Source of the DNA: an uncultured delta proteobacterium
GTDB taxonomy: Bacteria > Myxococcota_A > Polyangia > Haliangiales > Haliangiaceae
Reading direction: 5' to 3'
Assembly (NCBI GenBank): GCA_963848295.1
Contig: CAWKDB010000010.1
Span: forward strand, 2,784,001-2,848,000
DNA length: 64,000 nt
Each line of letters begins with the position of its first letter. The first letter of the stretch is position 1. Below the pieces are notes generated by a model that saw only the letters and a program-made list of their open reading frames with translations, searched no databases and was not told the origin of the DNA. The translations under genes and the position numbers were made by a program. Below, piece by piece: positions 57,891 to 62,208 of the stretch.

Positions 57891-57929
57891 CAGCCCCTGC
57901 CCCGATTGATACCCATACCGCCTGTTTCT

Positions 57930-58002
57930 GGGGTCATAGCTCAGCTGGGAGAGCGCTAGAATCGCACTCTAGAGGTCAGGGGTTCGATCCCCCTTGGCTC
58001 CA
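57930..58002 (+). tRNA. tRNA-Ala (anticodon CGC); CCA not encoded
   Basis: GGGGTCA/TGGCTCC acceptor stem with G3:U70, D arm AGCTCAGCTGGGAGAGC, anticodon arm CTAGA-ATCGCAC-TCTAG, T loop GTTCGATCC. Confidence 0.97.
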
Positions 58003-58011
58003 CGGAAAACC

Positions 58012-58050
58012 GAAGAGGTCTCGCAGCGATGCGAGGCCTTCTTTGTTTTC
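58012..58050 (+). terminator. Intrinsic terminator downstream of tRNA-Ala, repeated after each tRNA fragment
   Basis: GAGGTCTCGCA-GCGA-TGCGAGGCCTT hairpin followed by CTTTGTTTT. Confidence 0.8.
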
Positions 58051-58232
58051 GGCGTGCGGCAAGCGTTCTAGAGGCTGCTCTCGCACGCGTCGTCATTCCG
58101 TTCGCTTACGCAGTCCCGACCCTACGCAAACCGCTTCCAATCGTTCCGCAAAAACATTCTAGAGGTCCCGTCGTCACGTCGTCGCGTCCTGAACCCTTCT
58201 GGCTGCGTCGTTCCCGCGTGATAGCGTTCATT

Positions 58233-58445
58233 GTGGCAGCCGACGCTTCGAAAGTATCTCCAGCCGAGATCGCTGCACTCATGGTGCACCTCGATCCAGA
58301 GGTCCGCGACGCCATCGCCGATGTCGATCGAACGCTCATCGCGCTTGCGCTCGCGCAATCCCCCTGGGACCGGCTGAGGTCGGCATCTCGAATGGCGCAA
58401 GCCCTCGTCAGGATCCGGGATGGTGCCGCACCCCAAGGTCACTGA
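58233..58445 (+). CDS. Small partner protein (putative antitoxin) of the nucleotidyltransferase, cassette 1
   Basis: DVDRTLIALALAQSPWDRL motif; overlaps the next gene; start uncertain. Confidence 0.6.
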   Translation: MAADASKVSPAEIAALMVHLDPEVRDAIADVDRTLIALALAQSPWDRLRSASRMAQALVRIRDGAAPQGH

Positions 58446-58920
58446 CCTTCCCGCGCTGCTCGCGAAGCTGTGCGACGCCGGGATCGAGTTCATCATCGTC
58501 GGTGGCGCCGCCTGCGTGATCCAAGGCGCGCCGATCACGACCAACGATCTCGATATCGTCCATCAGAGGACGCCGGAGAACATCGAGCGGCTTCTCGCAG
58601 TCTTGCTCGAGCTCGATGCAACGATGCGCTACGACTTTGCGAACAGACGACTCCGCCCAACGACAGAGCTGTTAGCAGGCAGAGGACACCTGAACCTTTC
58701 CACCTCGCTCGGTCCGCTCGATCCGCTTTGCGAGCTCGACGGCCTGGGGTTCGACGAGTTGTTGGCCCATAGCCAGTCGGTGATCGATGAGGGGCGATTG
58801 CTTCGCGTACTGGACCTGCCGACGCTTATCACTGTGAAGACAAAGGCCGGACGACCGAAGGATCGACTCGTGCTCCCGATCCTGATCGCGACCCTCGAGG
58901 AGCGCGATAAGGCGAAGTGA
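58420..58920 (+). CDS. Pol-beta-superfamily nucleotidyltransferase (putative TA component), cassette 1
   Basis: FIIVGGAA...G...TTNDLDIV and LITVKTKAGRPKD motifs. Confidence 0.8.
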   Translation: MVPHPKVTDLPALLAKLCDAGIEFIIVGGAACVIQGAPITTNDLDIVHQRTPENIERLLAVLLELDATMRYDFANRRLRPTTELLAGRGHLNLSTSLGPLDPLCELDGLGFDELLAHSQSVIDEGRLLRVLDLPTLITVKTKAGRPKDRLVLPILIATLEERDKAK

Positions 58921-59084
58921 TTGACGGAACCCGGCGGTCGCGCGTGTTGCCCGGCGCGACGCCGACTCAACGCCAACGACCGCACGCAGTTGTTGGCCGT
59001 CACCGTTCCGCAAATTCGTCGACGGAGATCCGCGCACTGCGAAACGTTTCCCACTGGAACCTCGCGAGATTCCTCGGCGCGCCC

Positions 59085-59179
59085 AGAATCGCACTCTAGA
59101 GGTCAGGGGTTCGATCCCCCTTGGCTCCACGGAAAACCGAAGAGGTCTCGCAGCGATGCGAGGCCTTCTTTCGTTTCGG
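59085..59179 (+). repeat. att-like copy 2: tRNA-Ala 3' half plus terminator
   Basis: 59085..59129 identical to 57958..58002. Confidence 0.97.
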
Positions 59180-59351
59180 ACGCACGCGAATCGTTCCGCA
59201 AGCCGTTCTAGAGGTCTGCTCTCGCACGCAGTGTCATTCCGTTCGCTTACGCAATTCCGGCCCACCCGAAGCGCTTCCAATCGTTCCGCAAAGCATTCTA
59301 GAGGTCCCGTCGATCGGTCGGTCACGTCGCGCGTCCGAATGCCACGCAGCG

Positions 59352-59568
59352 CTATCGAAAGCGCCAAGGCTCGGGACGAAGACGTGCCAGCGAACGCGCG
59401 ACGGCCGCCGGGTCGATCTCGACGCGCTCCTTCATCAATCGGAACAAGGCCTCGGCCACCACAGACGCGATCGCGTGGATGCCCGCAACACATCGAGCAG
59501 ATCGAGCCACCGAGCGCAGGGCAACTGCGCTTGCCTTTGCGTTGTTTGCAGAAGCTGCATACCGCCAC
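59352..59568 (-). pseudogene. Truncated Cys-rich Zn-finger gene remnant, cassette 2
   Basis: MAVCSFCKQRKGKRSCPALGGSICSMCCG, after which the frame loses coding character. Confidence 0.45.
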
Positions 59569-59660
59569 CGCGACCTTTCGTAGCCCGCTAGCATCTGCGA
59601 CGCAATGCCTGGCAGTCGTTCCGCAGGATCCTCGACCAAGACTCGGCGTTGGGGACCTTG

Positions 59661-59963
59661 CTACACGTCGGGGCTGCGGCCCGCGAGCGCATTCCAGACG
59701 AGCAACACCTCGATGTCACCAGCTACTTCGTCAACTCGGTAGTAGACGTGGTTGCGCGTCTTCGGCATGAGGATTCGCCAAACGATCCGGCCGCCACGCG
59801 CTGCGTACTGCTGACGCTCCGCGTCCGCACCACCGCGCAGCTTGGTCACGATCGCGGACAGCTCTTCGACGAATACGCCCGGAGCCTTTTCACGATGCTG
59901 CTCCCACCACGTTCGCTTCTCTCGGACCGAGAGCCGAGCCTCCGGCGTGAAGCGAACTCTCAC
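59661..59963 (-). CDS. RelE/ParE-family toxin, cassette 2
   Basis: 100 aa; MRVRFTPEA N-terminus, RILMPKTRNHVYYRV...IEVLLVW. Confidence 0.8.
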   Translation of the reverse strand: MRVRFTPEARLSVREKRTWWEQHREKAPGVFVEELSAIVTKLRGGADAERQQYAARGGRIVWRILMPKTRNHVYYRVDEVAGDIEVLLVWNALAGRSPDV

Positions 59964-60190
59964 TGATGACGAAGCTCGTCCAGAACGTCGTCAGCGTCCA
60001 CCAACTCGCCAGCATCTGCCTGTGCGGCGCTTCGTTCGAGCGCTTGTTCGAGCGCCGCGCGCTCATCGTTGCTCATGTTGTCAGCCGCCGCGTCGTAGAG
60101 GTACACGCGAACCTCAGCGCCGTCGGGTAGATCGACCGGCTCGTCAACGACGATCTTTCCGTTCACAACATGAGCTCGGAGCGCGGTCAC
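59960..60190 (-). CDS. Putative antitoxin, cassette 2
   Basis: RAHVVNGKIVVDEPVDLPDGAEVRV beta domain, acidic C-terminus; GTGA overlap with the toxin. Confidence 0.75.
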   Translation of the reverse strand: MTALRAHVVNGKIVVDEPVDLPDGAEVRVYLYDAAADNMSNDERAALEQALERSAAQADAGELVDADDVLDELRHQ

Positions 60191-60315
60191 GAGATCAAGA
60201 TACACGAGCCGAGTCGGTTCGCGTCCGTTCCGCAACTTCTCCCAGAACATCCAAGACGTTGCACCGATTGCGGAATGTTCTGCTCCTCAATTCCGCGGGA
60301 TTCCTCGGCGCGCCG

Positions 60316-60410
60316 AGAATCGCACTCTAGAGGTCAGGGGTTCGATCCCCCTTGGCTCCACGGAAAACCGAAGAGGTCTCGCAGCGATGCGAGGCCTTCT
60401 TTGTTTTCGG
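60316..60410 (+). repeat. att-like copy 3: tRNA-Ala 3' half plus terminator
   Basis: 60316..60360 identical to 57958..58002. Confidence 0.97.
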
Positions 60411-60429
60411 ATCGTTCCCCAGCTTCGCA

Positions 60430-60810
60430 TCACGGCCGAACGAGCTCCACATCGAGGTCGGCCGCGCGAGCAAGCGGCGCTAGGTCCTCTGGATCAGACG
60501 TGATGATTCGATCGCCATCGCTCGCCAACAGGACCAGCGCAGCGTCAATGACATCATCTTGTTTTGCTCGGGCCAACAGCTCGCCAGCTGCGCGGCCGAG
60601 CACCGCATCCAGCCGCCGTATGTCGATCACGTCGAATGCCCGCGCAAGCAGCGCCTGACGGGGCCCCCGCCCGCGCCACGCCTGACCGACGATCCCGCCG
60701 TGAGACAACGGTGCCTCGCGGGACTGCAGAGCTTGCTTTAGACGCTGCCACATCGCGCGATCATTCCGTTCGAGCGCTATCAGCGCACCGGTATCAAAGA
60801 TCAGCCTCAT
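60430..60810 (-). CDS. PIN-domain (VapC-like) toxin, cassette 3
   Basis: LIFDTGALI, DVIDAALV, IITSDPEDL acidic PIN motifs. Confidence 0.85.
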   Translation of the reverse strand: MRLIFDTGALIALERNDRAMWQRLKQALQSREAPLSHGGIVGQAWRGRGPRQALLARAFDVIDIRRLDAVLGRAAGELLARAKQDDVIDAALVLLASDGDRIITSDPEDLAPLARAADLDVELVRP

Positions 60811-61115
60811 GCCACCTTCGAACGCCGCTTGCTTGTGCGGTTCTTAAGTGGGCCCCGGATCACGTTTGCCTTGCGCCGATCCTCGCGTTCACGTGCCGCG
60901 AGCTCGGATGGTGTGATCTCTCCATACTCAGCCTCATAGCCGGCGAGCAGGTCGGACAGGGCGGCGAGGCGGCGCTCTTTGAGCACATGCTCTGCAACGG
61001 CGAGATTGATCCAAGCACTCAACGAATCCGCCCGACCCGCTGCAATGGCGGCGTTGGCGGCCTCGACCAGGGCGCGGTCAAGGGTGACGGTAACCCGCTC
61101 TTTCGTCTCACTCAT
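60807..61115 (-). CDS. Ribbon-helix-helix (VapB-like) antitoxin, cassette 3
   Basis: KERVTVTLD...SLSAWINLAV...YEAEYGEITPSEL; ATGA overlap with the PIN gene. Confidence 0.8.
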   Translation of the reverse strand: MSETKERVTVTLDRALVEAANAAIAAGRADSLSAWINLAVAEHVLKERRLAALSDLLAGYEAEYGEITPSELAAREREDRRKANVIRGPLKNRTSKRRSKVA

Positions 61116-61269
61116 ACTATTATCATACCATCGTATGCGCAACGTCAGGACGCCGATCGAGCCCGGCAAATGCGTTGTCCCACCTAACCGTTCCGCAGAT
61201 TCCTCGTCGGAGACTCGGCGTTGCGGAACGCTCGTGGCCCTCAACCCCGCGGGATCCCTCGGTGCGCCC

Positions 61270-61365
61270 AGAATCGCACTCTAGAGGTCAGGGGTTCGAT
61301 CCCCCTTGGCTCCACCAGGAAACGAAGAGGTCTCGCAGCGATGCGAGGCCTTCTTTCGTTTCGGC
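61270..61365 (+). repeat. att-like copy 4: tRNA-Ala 3' half with encoded CCA plus terminator
   Basis: 61270..61314 identical to the tRNA 3' segment, followed by CCA at 61315..61317. Confidence 0.97.
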
Positions 61366-61437
61366 CTGGGCGCAAAACCGGGTGCGGAACGATCGCGTCA
61401 GGCAATTAGTCGTTTCGATCTCGGTCCACGAGAAGCC

Positions 61438-62208
61438 CTACCTAGGCTTCTCGTGGGGAAGCTTCCGAGTCGTGAACAGCGCTGCGAACATCGGCGATGC
61501 CTGAAACGCTTTGGCAAGCGCGGCGATGAGAGCAAGAGAGTAGCCGCGGCCTTGAAGCTCGGCCGCGATTTCGGCCAGCGGTCTTTGCTCGATCACGCGC
61601 CGTAGCAGGCGTGCGGCGGGACGATCAAGCGACAGCTGCAGCGGCTCAGCTAAGGCGAGTAACCAGCGCTCGATTTGCGCCGTCGCTCCGCGCTTCGGAT
61701 GGATGCGCTCGATCGCTTCCAGAATCGTTTCTCGATCGCCCGCGTCAGCGAGTAGCGCGAGGAAGGTGCGGTGTTGGCGCTCGCGGACACGACGTCGCAG
61801 CGCGAACAGCTGTGCACGCACTCGAATGAGCGTGATTGCGCGAGCGAGCGCATCACCCGCGTGGCCATGATGACGTCGTACCATGCGGAGGTATGGGGCC
61901 AGTGCACGGTTGTCTTCGTGCTCCGCGGATGCTGCTTCGAGGATCGCCCAGCTCGCGGCCAGACCGGTTGCAATTATCGCCTCAGCGGCACGCAAGCCGC
62001 GACGACGCTCGAGTCGAGCGCACGCCTCGTGGATCCTGACTCGCGCCCGCAGGGTTGCGTCCGGCACTGGCGGCAACGGATCGACAGCGACACCGGGCGG
62101 GTGAAACACCCACTGCGGGGTGAGCGCGGGTAACGTTGGAGTGCGGACAACGAGCGTCACCGGGAGACACTCGCCGAACGTTTCGCGCGAGAGCCTCATC
62201 CGCTTCAC
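61438..62208 (-). CDS. Hypothetical protein, possibly the C-terminal part of a disrupted gene extending to ~62580
   Basis: 256-aa ORF with no recognised family; short upstream same-strand ORF fragments. Confidence 0.35.
   Translation of the reverse strand: MKRMRLSRETFGECLPVTLVVRTPTLPALTPQWVFHPPGVAVDPLPPVPDATLRARVRIHEACARLERRRGLRAAEAIIATGLAASWAILEAASAEHEDNRALAPYLRMVRRHHGHAGDALARAITLIRVRAQLFALRRRVRERQHRTFLALLADAGDRETILEAIERIHPKRGATAQIERWLLALAEPLQLSLDRPAARLLRRVIEQRPLAEIAAELQGRGYSLALIAALAKAFQASPMFAALFTTRKLPHEKPR

Follow-up and report, generated by a model that had tools for sequence, protein, structure and literature searches.

Units that lack an integrase and accumulate at a single site have been described in several systems. 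The cis-mobilizable elements (CIMEs) of the ICESt1/ICESt3 family are bounded by attL and attR, carry genes for neither integration nor transfer and collect at a common location (PMC5704250, PMC10201445). In Dehalococcoides, islands stand in tandem behind one RNA gene, ssrA, and the integration module is absent from 15 of 31 (PMC3146451). The Islander survey of islands at transfer RNA (tRNA) genes demands an integrase of every member and discards candidates below 2 kb (PMC4383910). Whether integrase-less pieces behind tRNA genes are debris or a working route of gene exchange is debated. We analysed a row of three such units behind a tRNA-Ala(CGC) gene in a 64,000-nucleotide stretch of DNA from an uncultured delta proteobacterium, probably a soil-dwelling myxobacterium (assembly GCA_963848295.1, contig CAWKDB010000010.1, positions 2,784,001 to 2,848,000), which we call the window and in which position 1 is the first letter. 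The locus is real, variable and well resolved, and it is a variant of known island stacking; by analogy, its closest known category appears to be the tandem accretion of CIMEs, to which a mirrored cassette end and a candidate integrase add new detail. Our preferred reading, to which we give about an even chance, is that the three units are non-autonomous cassettes, inserted serially by a borrowed tyrosine integrase of the lambda type and later trimmed or fused.

Behind the intact tRNA gene, its 3' end is repeated exactly three times, from 59085, 60316 and 61270 onwards, at a spacing of 1127, 1231 and 954 bp. An earlier note, made from the letters alone, had reported these copies and intervals, and both were reproduced, except that the repeated core measures 46 bp and not 45 nt. 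It had also seen the same terminator at each copy, and an identical 26-bp hairpin does follow all four cores. Copies 1 to 3 are identical over 87-95 bp, and copy 4 deviates in a few bases ahead of the hairpin. The rest of the 7.8-Mb assembly contains no further exact 46-bp core, and an Rfam scan of the locus returned nothing except tRNA-Ala(CGC). The units have a G+C fraction of 0.62-0.63, compared with 0.72 in the upstream gene, and each contains one overlapping two-gene pair. The absence of a recombinase from the window was borne out as well, since the 15 PF00589 matches of the genome and its single PF00239 match all lie outside. The window therefore lacks the integrase that lambda-type tRNA elements carry for themselves, and its units, like CIMEs, hold neither integrase nor transfer genes.

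The ends of the units resemble phage-type attachment sites. The crossover lies in the 7-bp anticodon loop, the putative overlap region, which is flanked by inverted core-type sequences as in lambda-type tRNA elements. In 37 of 61 partial copies, identity to the tRNA starts 7-8 bases before the 3' anticodon stem, in agreement with the earlier note, which had placed the exchange in this loop. An arm-like 9-mer of the type CGTTCCGCA occurs nine times in the array, where 0.16 would be expected per 3.5 kb. Within its last 100 bp, each unit has a forward and a reverse arm-like copy, followed by a spacer element that is conserved and by a half-site of the core type. Each unit is bounded by attL- and attR-type sites, with the 46-bp core and arms at both ends; the arm-type repeats on the two sides of the core are putative arms, recognised by motif enrichment and conserved spacing. 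This layout of a 7-bp overlap, inverted core-type flanks and distant arm-type repeats resembles that of the lambda att site (PMC4880445), with arm binding here suggested by the motifs, and the anticodon-centred position corresponds to site A of Islander (PMC4383910). The left end of unit 1 has lost its first arm site and, over 132 bases, agrees with its counterpart in unit 2 at 117; the doubled left-end variant of these two units was also found in G096 and G108 (we denote genomes by G, the genome of the window being G000, fetched loci by L, and contigs of G000 by C4 and C10).

The names of homologs and of pattern matches indicate Kofleriaceae (Myxococcota) as the likely family. We screened 138 genomes of the family for the core and found it in 118, and at least two copies are present in 34 of the 89 published genus genomes. 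We fetched 80 regions, most of them selected for the presence of two cores within a single contig, which favours small units; elements above 20 kb were not closed. The genomes are also related to one another. Among 44 closed units in relatives (a set that excludes other genera, redundant haplotypes and the window, and merges two G075 units), 39 were integrase-less, with a median of 2.6 kb and a range of 0.5-10 kb; 12 of them measured at most 2 kb. The modules of the window recur elsewhere, module 1 in G008, G089, G101 and L161 and module 3 in L106, L121 and G018. Module 2 was found in G114 and on contig C4, and G072, G089, G101 and G109 have forms of it that are more distant. One 1828-bp unit is the first after the tRNA in L121, while in L106 at least two units stand upstream of the same unit (99.6% identical). 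Since modules occupy other positions and this unit is displaced between the two loci, the arrangement is not fixed. The variation in cassette number, order and cargo that the earlier note had proposed at tRNA-Ala(CGC) is therefore found among relatives, and the site is a hotspot throughout the family. In G072, in G093 and on contig C4, integrase-less units also flank an integrase element on its tRNA side.

A candidate for the enzyme was found at the same gene. Tyrosine integrases of one family lie directly behind tRNA-Ala(CGC) in G018, G016, G001 and other genomes, with 41-78% pairwise identity and intact R-H-R-H-Y catalytic motifs, and their genes are preceded by 2-3 tandem reverse copies of the arm 9-mer with an 11-bp period. 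The family was matched in 34 of the 89 published genus genomes. One closed integrase element contains phage capsid, baseplate and replication genes; other integrase elements showed no recognisable phage or conjugation genes among the open reading frames (ORFs) scanned, and viral contigs contained no relative of the cognate integrase. Within G000, none of the other integrases has an arm-motif cluster nearby, and the only homolog is a decayed one on contig C4, adjoining an 87% copy of module 2. The tyrosine recombinase with matching arms anticipated by the earlier note thus exists as a cognate family in relatives, and in the genome itself as a decayed copy only. Separately, two fetched loci (L174, L175) contain relatives of the integrase (63% identical) with the same arm motif behind other tRNA genes, by eye Gln-CTG and Ala-GGC. 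The only two viral records of the core (contigs L169 and L170) carry it in a tRNA-Ala(CGC) inside a 10-tRNA cluster.

Many integrase-less units begin in a characteristic way: past the terminator comes a forward arm site, then, after 2-7 bases, the core-type word TCTAGAGGT and, about 30 bases further on, another forward arm site. Using a profile of the inner right arm that excluded the genome being tested, we sought its reverse complement at left ends. Of 70 left ends without an adjacent integrase, 14 had it in exact register (and one more off-register), compared with none of nine with one. With a simple pattern, an integrase lay within 450 bp at none of 20 mirrored ends and at 9 of 13 tandem-reverse ends (Fisher test p 2e-5, a value overstated by the relatedness of the genomes; two entries of the pattern table are spurious, a 125-bp row and a division of the G119 element, and two G075 units are merged in it). 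Mirrored ends of different genomes are 40% identical to each other in their spacer. They are no closer to the right arm of their own unit (43%), right arms are 43% identical to each other, and shuffled sequences reach 27%. The fact that mirrored ends from different genomes have diverged this far and still retain three motifs suggests long selection rather than recent copying. A search of the GTDB collection for the exact pattern gave 14 matches (titled Kofleriaceae, Haliangiales, Myxococcales; two only Proteobacteria). We also considered the mirrored site as a crossover point and rejected it: such a crossover predicts scars of about 110 bp with two tRNA tails, and the shortest closed interval was 514 bp. 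Our literature search, which covered subscription journals thinly, found no paper on the tRNA-Ala(CGC) locus or on a mirrored half-site. A second array of this system in G000, at C4:293718-318473, has no tRNA in front; it comprises an IS21-like element, a canonical mirrored left end, the 87% copy of module 2, a right arm with its core deleted and then a low-GC element of about 24 kb, which contains the decayed integrase homolog and ends on the right in a damaged tail of tRNA-Ala(CGC).

Like CIMEs, the units are site-bounded, stacked and shaped by deletion, and they would depend on the recombinase of another element. They differ in that many have a conserved mirrored left end of their own, which is not merely a leftover attL, in their size, which goes down to 0.5-1.5 kb, and in the presumed helpers seen, a decayed prophage and integrative elements without conjugation matches among the ORFs scanned. 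The Dehalococcoides islands are likewise bounded by copies of the 3' end of an RNA gene, and their cargo and integration module assort independently; however, they employ the serine recombinase DsiB and a 20-bp repeat (PMC3146451), whereas here we find a tyrosine integrase, an anticodon-loop crossover, a 46-bp repeat, arm-like sites, and conflict-type cargo that is much smaller. In the Tycheposon islands of Prochlorococcus, new elements displace older ones from the tRNA gene, and partial tRNA copies and decayed elements build up (10.1101/2020.12.28.424599). Those elements encode an integrase, while most units here have none and yet keep ordered ends. Given its integrase requirement and 2 kb minimum, Islander would miss such units.

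Integron cassettes, clusters of attC sites lacking integron integrases (CALINs) and pdif modules are rows of small interchangeable modules, often toxin-antitoxin (TA), without a recombinase of their own. The earlier note had likened the array to integrons and pdif modules. The sites here, in contrast, are phage-type double-stranded att sites on a tRNA. We found no match to an attC consensus in 57901-61420 (shuffle mean 0.39) and, allowing up to 3 mismatches, none to a XerD arm of dif-like sites. No PF00589 protein that could be an integron integrase lies in the window, and the cognate integrase scored 14.6 against TIGR02249, for which the cut-off is 265. Since attC and dif motifs are lacking, 'integron-like' holds as an analogy only.

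In the mechanism that we envisage, a passing prophage or integrative element would supply the integrase, the right arm would work as the P arm and the mirrored left half-site would stand in for the P' arm, with the unit excising and inserting without an integrase gene of its own. Insertion at the anticodon loop would restore the tRNA and shift older units downstream, later deletions would shrink and fuse units, and TA-type cargo may favour their retention. This mechanism draws directly on the common core, the terminator, the arm-like motifs, the turnover, the cognate integrase family and the deletion scars seen in the DNA; it would further entail borrowing of the integrase, solo circles and toxin function. 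Since the assembled genome has no intact cognate integrase, the array is probably frozen until a helper arrives. We also entertain, tentatively, a more far-reaching proposal, namely a dedicated Kofleriaceae cassette system in which the P' arm and integrase were swapped for the mirrored half-site, the integrase of passing prophages and integrative elements is borrowed and a genus-wide, integron-like pool of TA, immunity and defence modules is kept at tRNA-Ala(CGC).

A number of observations weigh against serial insertion of cassettes by a borrowed integrase. The only integrase homolog in G000 (C4:316505-317487) has 44 gap openings in 1.2 kb (the genome is 85% complete), and nine genomes with arrays (G008, G061, G089, G092, G108, G109, G102, G114 and G015; 72-100% complete) have no family match at E<=1e-20; together, the decayed homolog and these nine genomes suggest that the helper is transient. 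None of the four left ends in the window reaches the shuffle null with the mirrored profile. Units 1 and 2 show a degenerate doubled form, unit 3 has one site only, and the canonical mirrored end occurs in G000 in the C4 copy alone. Among 43 integrase-less rows, 17 have no recognisable left end and 8 retain reverse sites of the autonomous type. Two points count against the earlier note and not against this reading. Unit 2 is not a simple two-gene module, since it contains an internally deleted third gene at 59352-59568 and an internal arm pair at 59617-59657. The arm pair reads as a scar left where the junction of two former units was lost, and unit 2 as a deletion-fused composite. This weakens the idea of a minimal cassette, which the earlier note had applied to unit 2 while naming deletion relics among the outcomes that would speak against it, and the minimal size it had proposed does not hold for relatives, given the range of their units. 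Against serial insertion, too, contigs from run X1 (share 0.56), possibly the source sample, and from two runs of the same study contained no excised circle, skip joint or empty-site joint, nor the junctions of circles of about 1 kb that the earlier note had foreseen; contigs are all the read-run evidence that we used.

Further points on the same side come from the tRNA tails. The copies nearly always carry the acceptor-stem allele of their host and often the terminator of their array. Terminator identity is 90% or higher in 26% of the 74 pairs compared within genomes and in 3% of the 3412 compared between genomes. Such host-matched tails are not explained by foreign circles on their own. Gene conversion after insertion is the simplest reading of them, since integrase-bearing elements show the matching too. 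Two side observations concern individual loci. Internal tRNA copies with the same non-tRNA insert behind the core, and with the host allele and terminator at their end, occur in five genomes, at L074:5784, L075:4035, L096:10550, L091:6138 and L161:3438. At L087:52-130 (G109), the 5' and 3' acceptor strands of the tRNA belong to different alleles, as if the 3' half had arrived with the first unit.

The alternative that survives best, although we regard it as doubtful, is that the cassettes move in cis only, as CIMEs: a helper at the tRNA would excise via its own left site and the right site of a cassette, carry cassettes along and later leave, and the left ends of the cassettes would be idle. 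Such a route has been published for Streptococcus (PMC5704250) and proposed for Dehalococcoides (PMC3146451). It agrees with the right arms, of which both sites are present in 36 of the 43 integrase-less rows while left ends are often missing, and with the damaged internal tRNA copies that share one insert in G064, G072, G101, G114 and L161, as expected if junctions travel in composites. If the left ends were idle, however, there would be no reason for a conserved mirrored half-site restricted to integrase-less units, or for the common left ends of G020, G061 and G075 to stop sharply at the second arm site while the cargo differs.

An improbable alternative is that every unit is the immobile deletion remainder of a separate large integrase-bearing island. 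Integrase fragments do occur within small units of G003, G063, G054 and G147, autonomous-type left arms stand without an integrase in G008 and G002, a gene deletion and a lost core are seen in unit 2 of the window and on C4, and the Prochlorococcus islands present the same picture (10.1101/2020.12.28.424599). The window, in contrast, holds no integrase remnant, and the long form of the gene deleted in unit 2 is itself the first cargo gene of an integrase-less unit, 4096 bp long, in G064. The same small modules are moreover found in many species and in varied positions, and the mirrored left end is unlike a deleted autonomous end.

More improbable still is an origin in place, by which tRNA tail, terminator and left end were duplicated through unequal recombination and the cargo was swapped via the short arm repeats. 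The host-matched alleles and terminators would follow from it, as would the near-identity of the left ends of window units 1 and 2 and the case of G061 unit 2 and G116 unit 1, which share 3.4 kb of cargo at 92% and have different left ends. Arms that are about 40% identical between genomes are, however, too dissimilar for ordinary homologous recombination, and the matched tails are also accounted for by gene conversion after integration; matched terminators flank integrase-bearing elements too (G057, G147). An assembly artefact, with strain variants joined across repeats, is barely credible even though no contig bridges a whole repeat and X1 contigs break at repeats. The three units differ in their genes, 34 of the 89 genus genomes have two cores or more, and the window lies within a 4.9-Mb contig. 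Pieces of every unit are present in X1 contigs with 0 differences, and so are three joints, those from right arm to core in units 1 and 3 and the one from core to left end in unit 2 (X1, as the possible source sample, is not independent); the misassembly envisaged in the earlier note is countered at these three joints.

If the mirrored end works, it would be a new build of a lambda-type attachment site that dispenses with the usual P' arm, and the units that carry it would form a mobile class beyond the design of Islander. If it is idle, the locus would be a clear myxobacterial case of CIME accretion and erosion, enriched in TA cargo. One genus here offers a candidate enzyme, an arm motif, an autonomous end and a distinct cassette end, which makes the question directly testable.

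The earlier note had assigned a different two-gene module to each unit. The pairs are there, and unit 2 has the deleted gene and the extra arm pair in addition. Toxin and antitoxin roles in the window are predicted from fold, size and gene overlap. In units 2 and 3, the RelE/ParE and PIN genes each have a small upstream partner with a 4-bp gene overlap, and the pairs travel together; by modelled fold and partner, both units would fit type II TA systems (ParE/RelE, VapC). The 100-aa model, with a predicted local distance difference test (pLDDT) score of 88, matches ParE/RelE complexes (Foldseek E 2e-4 to 8e-4), and the 76-aa gene always adjoins the RelE/ParE gene (G114, G109, G101, G072, G089, C4). 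The 126-aa model (pLDDT 97) matches VapC/PIN toxins (Foldseek E 9e-5). The ribbon-helix-helix (RHH) lead for its 102-aa partner is PF01402 on 10% of one Atlas cluster. In unit 1, the 70-aa protein accompanies the nucleotidyltransferase in G008, G089 and G101, and the assignment of the latter came from a profile match of E 9e-4, below the cut-off, and from a second assignment with a score of 0.97. PDB sequence searches for the two toxins, and NCBIfam and PHROGs searches for the window proteins, gave nothing useful.

The earlier note had further suggested a bank of TA or anti-phage genes. The TA part holds to an extent: TA-type queries, a set itself built from these same loci, matched 20 of the 39 integrase-less units in relatives and 8 of the 12 of at most 2 kb, so that the bank is not one of TA genes alone. 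Relatives also have cargo of other kinds, among it proteins of the TsiV and DUF4259 families, Uma2, helicases and genes of metabolism. The anti-phage part found no support in the window, where PADLOC 2.0 matched none of the six cargo proteins to a known anti-phage system; some units of relatives do match it (DarTG, RmrA-like, PbeA-like). Among 49 metagenome loci with the PIN gene, most on contigs of 1-4 kb, the tRNA core was visible only at L106 and L121, and a more distant RelE-type pair and PIN gene occur elsewhere in G000; the cargo genes are therefore not confined to the tRNA-Ala(CGC) site.

Table 1. Features of the tRNA-Ala(CGC) array, in window coordinates.
Feature	Position	Strand	Basis or content
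tRNA-Ala(CGC), intact, integration target	57930..58003	+	ARAGORN and Rfam
7-bp anticodon loop of tRNA-Ala(CGC), putative overlap region	57961-57967	+	
46-bp core, copy 1 (tRNA 3' end)	57958..58003	+	exact-repeat comparison
Intrinsic-terminator-like hairpin, 26 bp, copy 1	58015..58040	+	identical at all four cores
Left end, unit 1	58041..58220	+	TCTAGAGG core-type word at 58067, 58158; forward arm-like sites 58142, 58209
70-aa protein, predicted antitoxin-like partner of nucleotidyltransferase, unit 1	58233..58445	+	no family match
166-aa nucleotidyltransferase, DUF6036/DUF2204/AbiEii-like group, unit 1	58420..58920	+	VGG and TNDLD motifs
Right arm, unit 1	58985..59084	+	forward site 59004, reverse ~59038, CAA-N8-GATT-type element, core-type half-site
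Core copy 2 and terminator	59085..59167	+	core 59085-59130, terminator 59142-59167
Left end, unit 2	59168..59312	+	forward arm-like site and TCTAGAGG twice (59192/59207, 59282/59297)
Remnant of ~600-aa gene, unit 2	59352..59568	-	~1.55 kb gone from the middle
Internal right-arm relic, unit 2 (inverted arm pair, no core)	59617..59657	+	
100-aa RelE/ParE-fold protein, predicted toxin, unit 2	59661..59963	-	Foldseek on model
76-aa predicted antitoxin, unit 2	59960..60190	-	no family match
Right arm, unit 2	60216..60315	+	forward site 60226, reverse ~60269
Core copy 3 and terminator	60316..60398	+	core 60316-60361, terminator 60373-60398
Left end, unit 3, single forward arm-like site	60413..60421	+	cargo begins ~5 bases later
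126-aa PIN/VapC-fold protein, predicted toxin, unit 3	60430..60810	-	conserved acidic D6, D86, D89, D106
102-aa predicted antitoxin, unit 3	60807..61115	-	weak RHH lead
Right arm, unit 3	61170..61269	+	forward site 61189, reverse 61222
Core copy 4 and terminator	61270..61352	+	core 61270-61315, terminator 61327-61352
Reverse arm-like site, placed like first left-arm site of integrase-bearing elements	61383..61391	-	

An older, decayed element probably has its left end at the last site in Table 1, and G+C stays at 0.64 up to about 62500. A 256-aa ORF in this stretch behind copy 4 (61438-62208, minus strand) may be cargo of the older element; it had no family match in family profiles, NCBIfam, PHROGs or PADLOC.

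Small units ending in tRNA tails were also observed at other tRNA genes of G000, and from these sequences they appear to be a genome-wide habit. At C10:112742-113592, an exact 64-bp copy of the 3' part of tRNA-SeC stands 787 bp further on; between the two there is no PF00589 match but what looks like a small two-gene pair (by eye MazF-like, a tentative label). At tRNA-His (C10:3858023-3872426) and tRNA-Ala(GGC) (4231910-4260578), a larger integrase element is followed by a small second unit of about 1.7 and 2.0 kb, respectively, each with two-gene cargo and the His unit with an integrase fragment. Behind tRNA-Leu(TAG), at C10:2152583-2153021, stand four tandem repeats of about 140 bp, each of which includes the final 19 bases of the tRNA together with GC-rich inverted segments. 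In another genus (G042 with L067, L068 and L069; also L066 of G041), three contigs of one assembly share the same distal units of 2956, 1252 and 1139 bp. These three contigs, L067-L069, differ upstream of one junction, and their left ends are GC-rich hairpin blocks, not the motifs of the tRNA-Ala(CGC) arrays.

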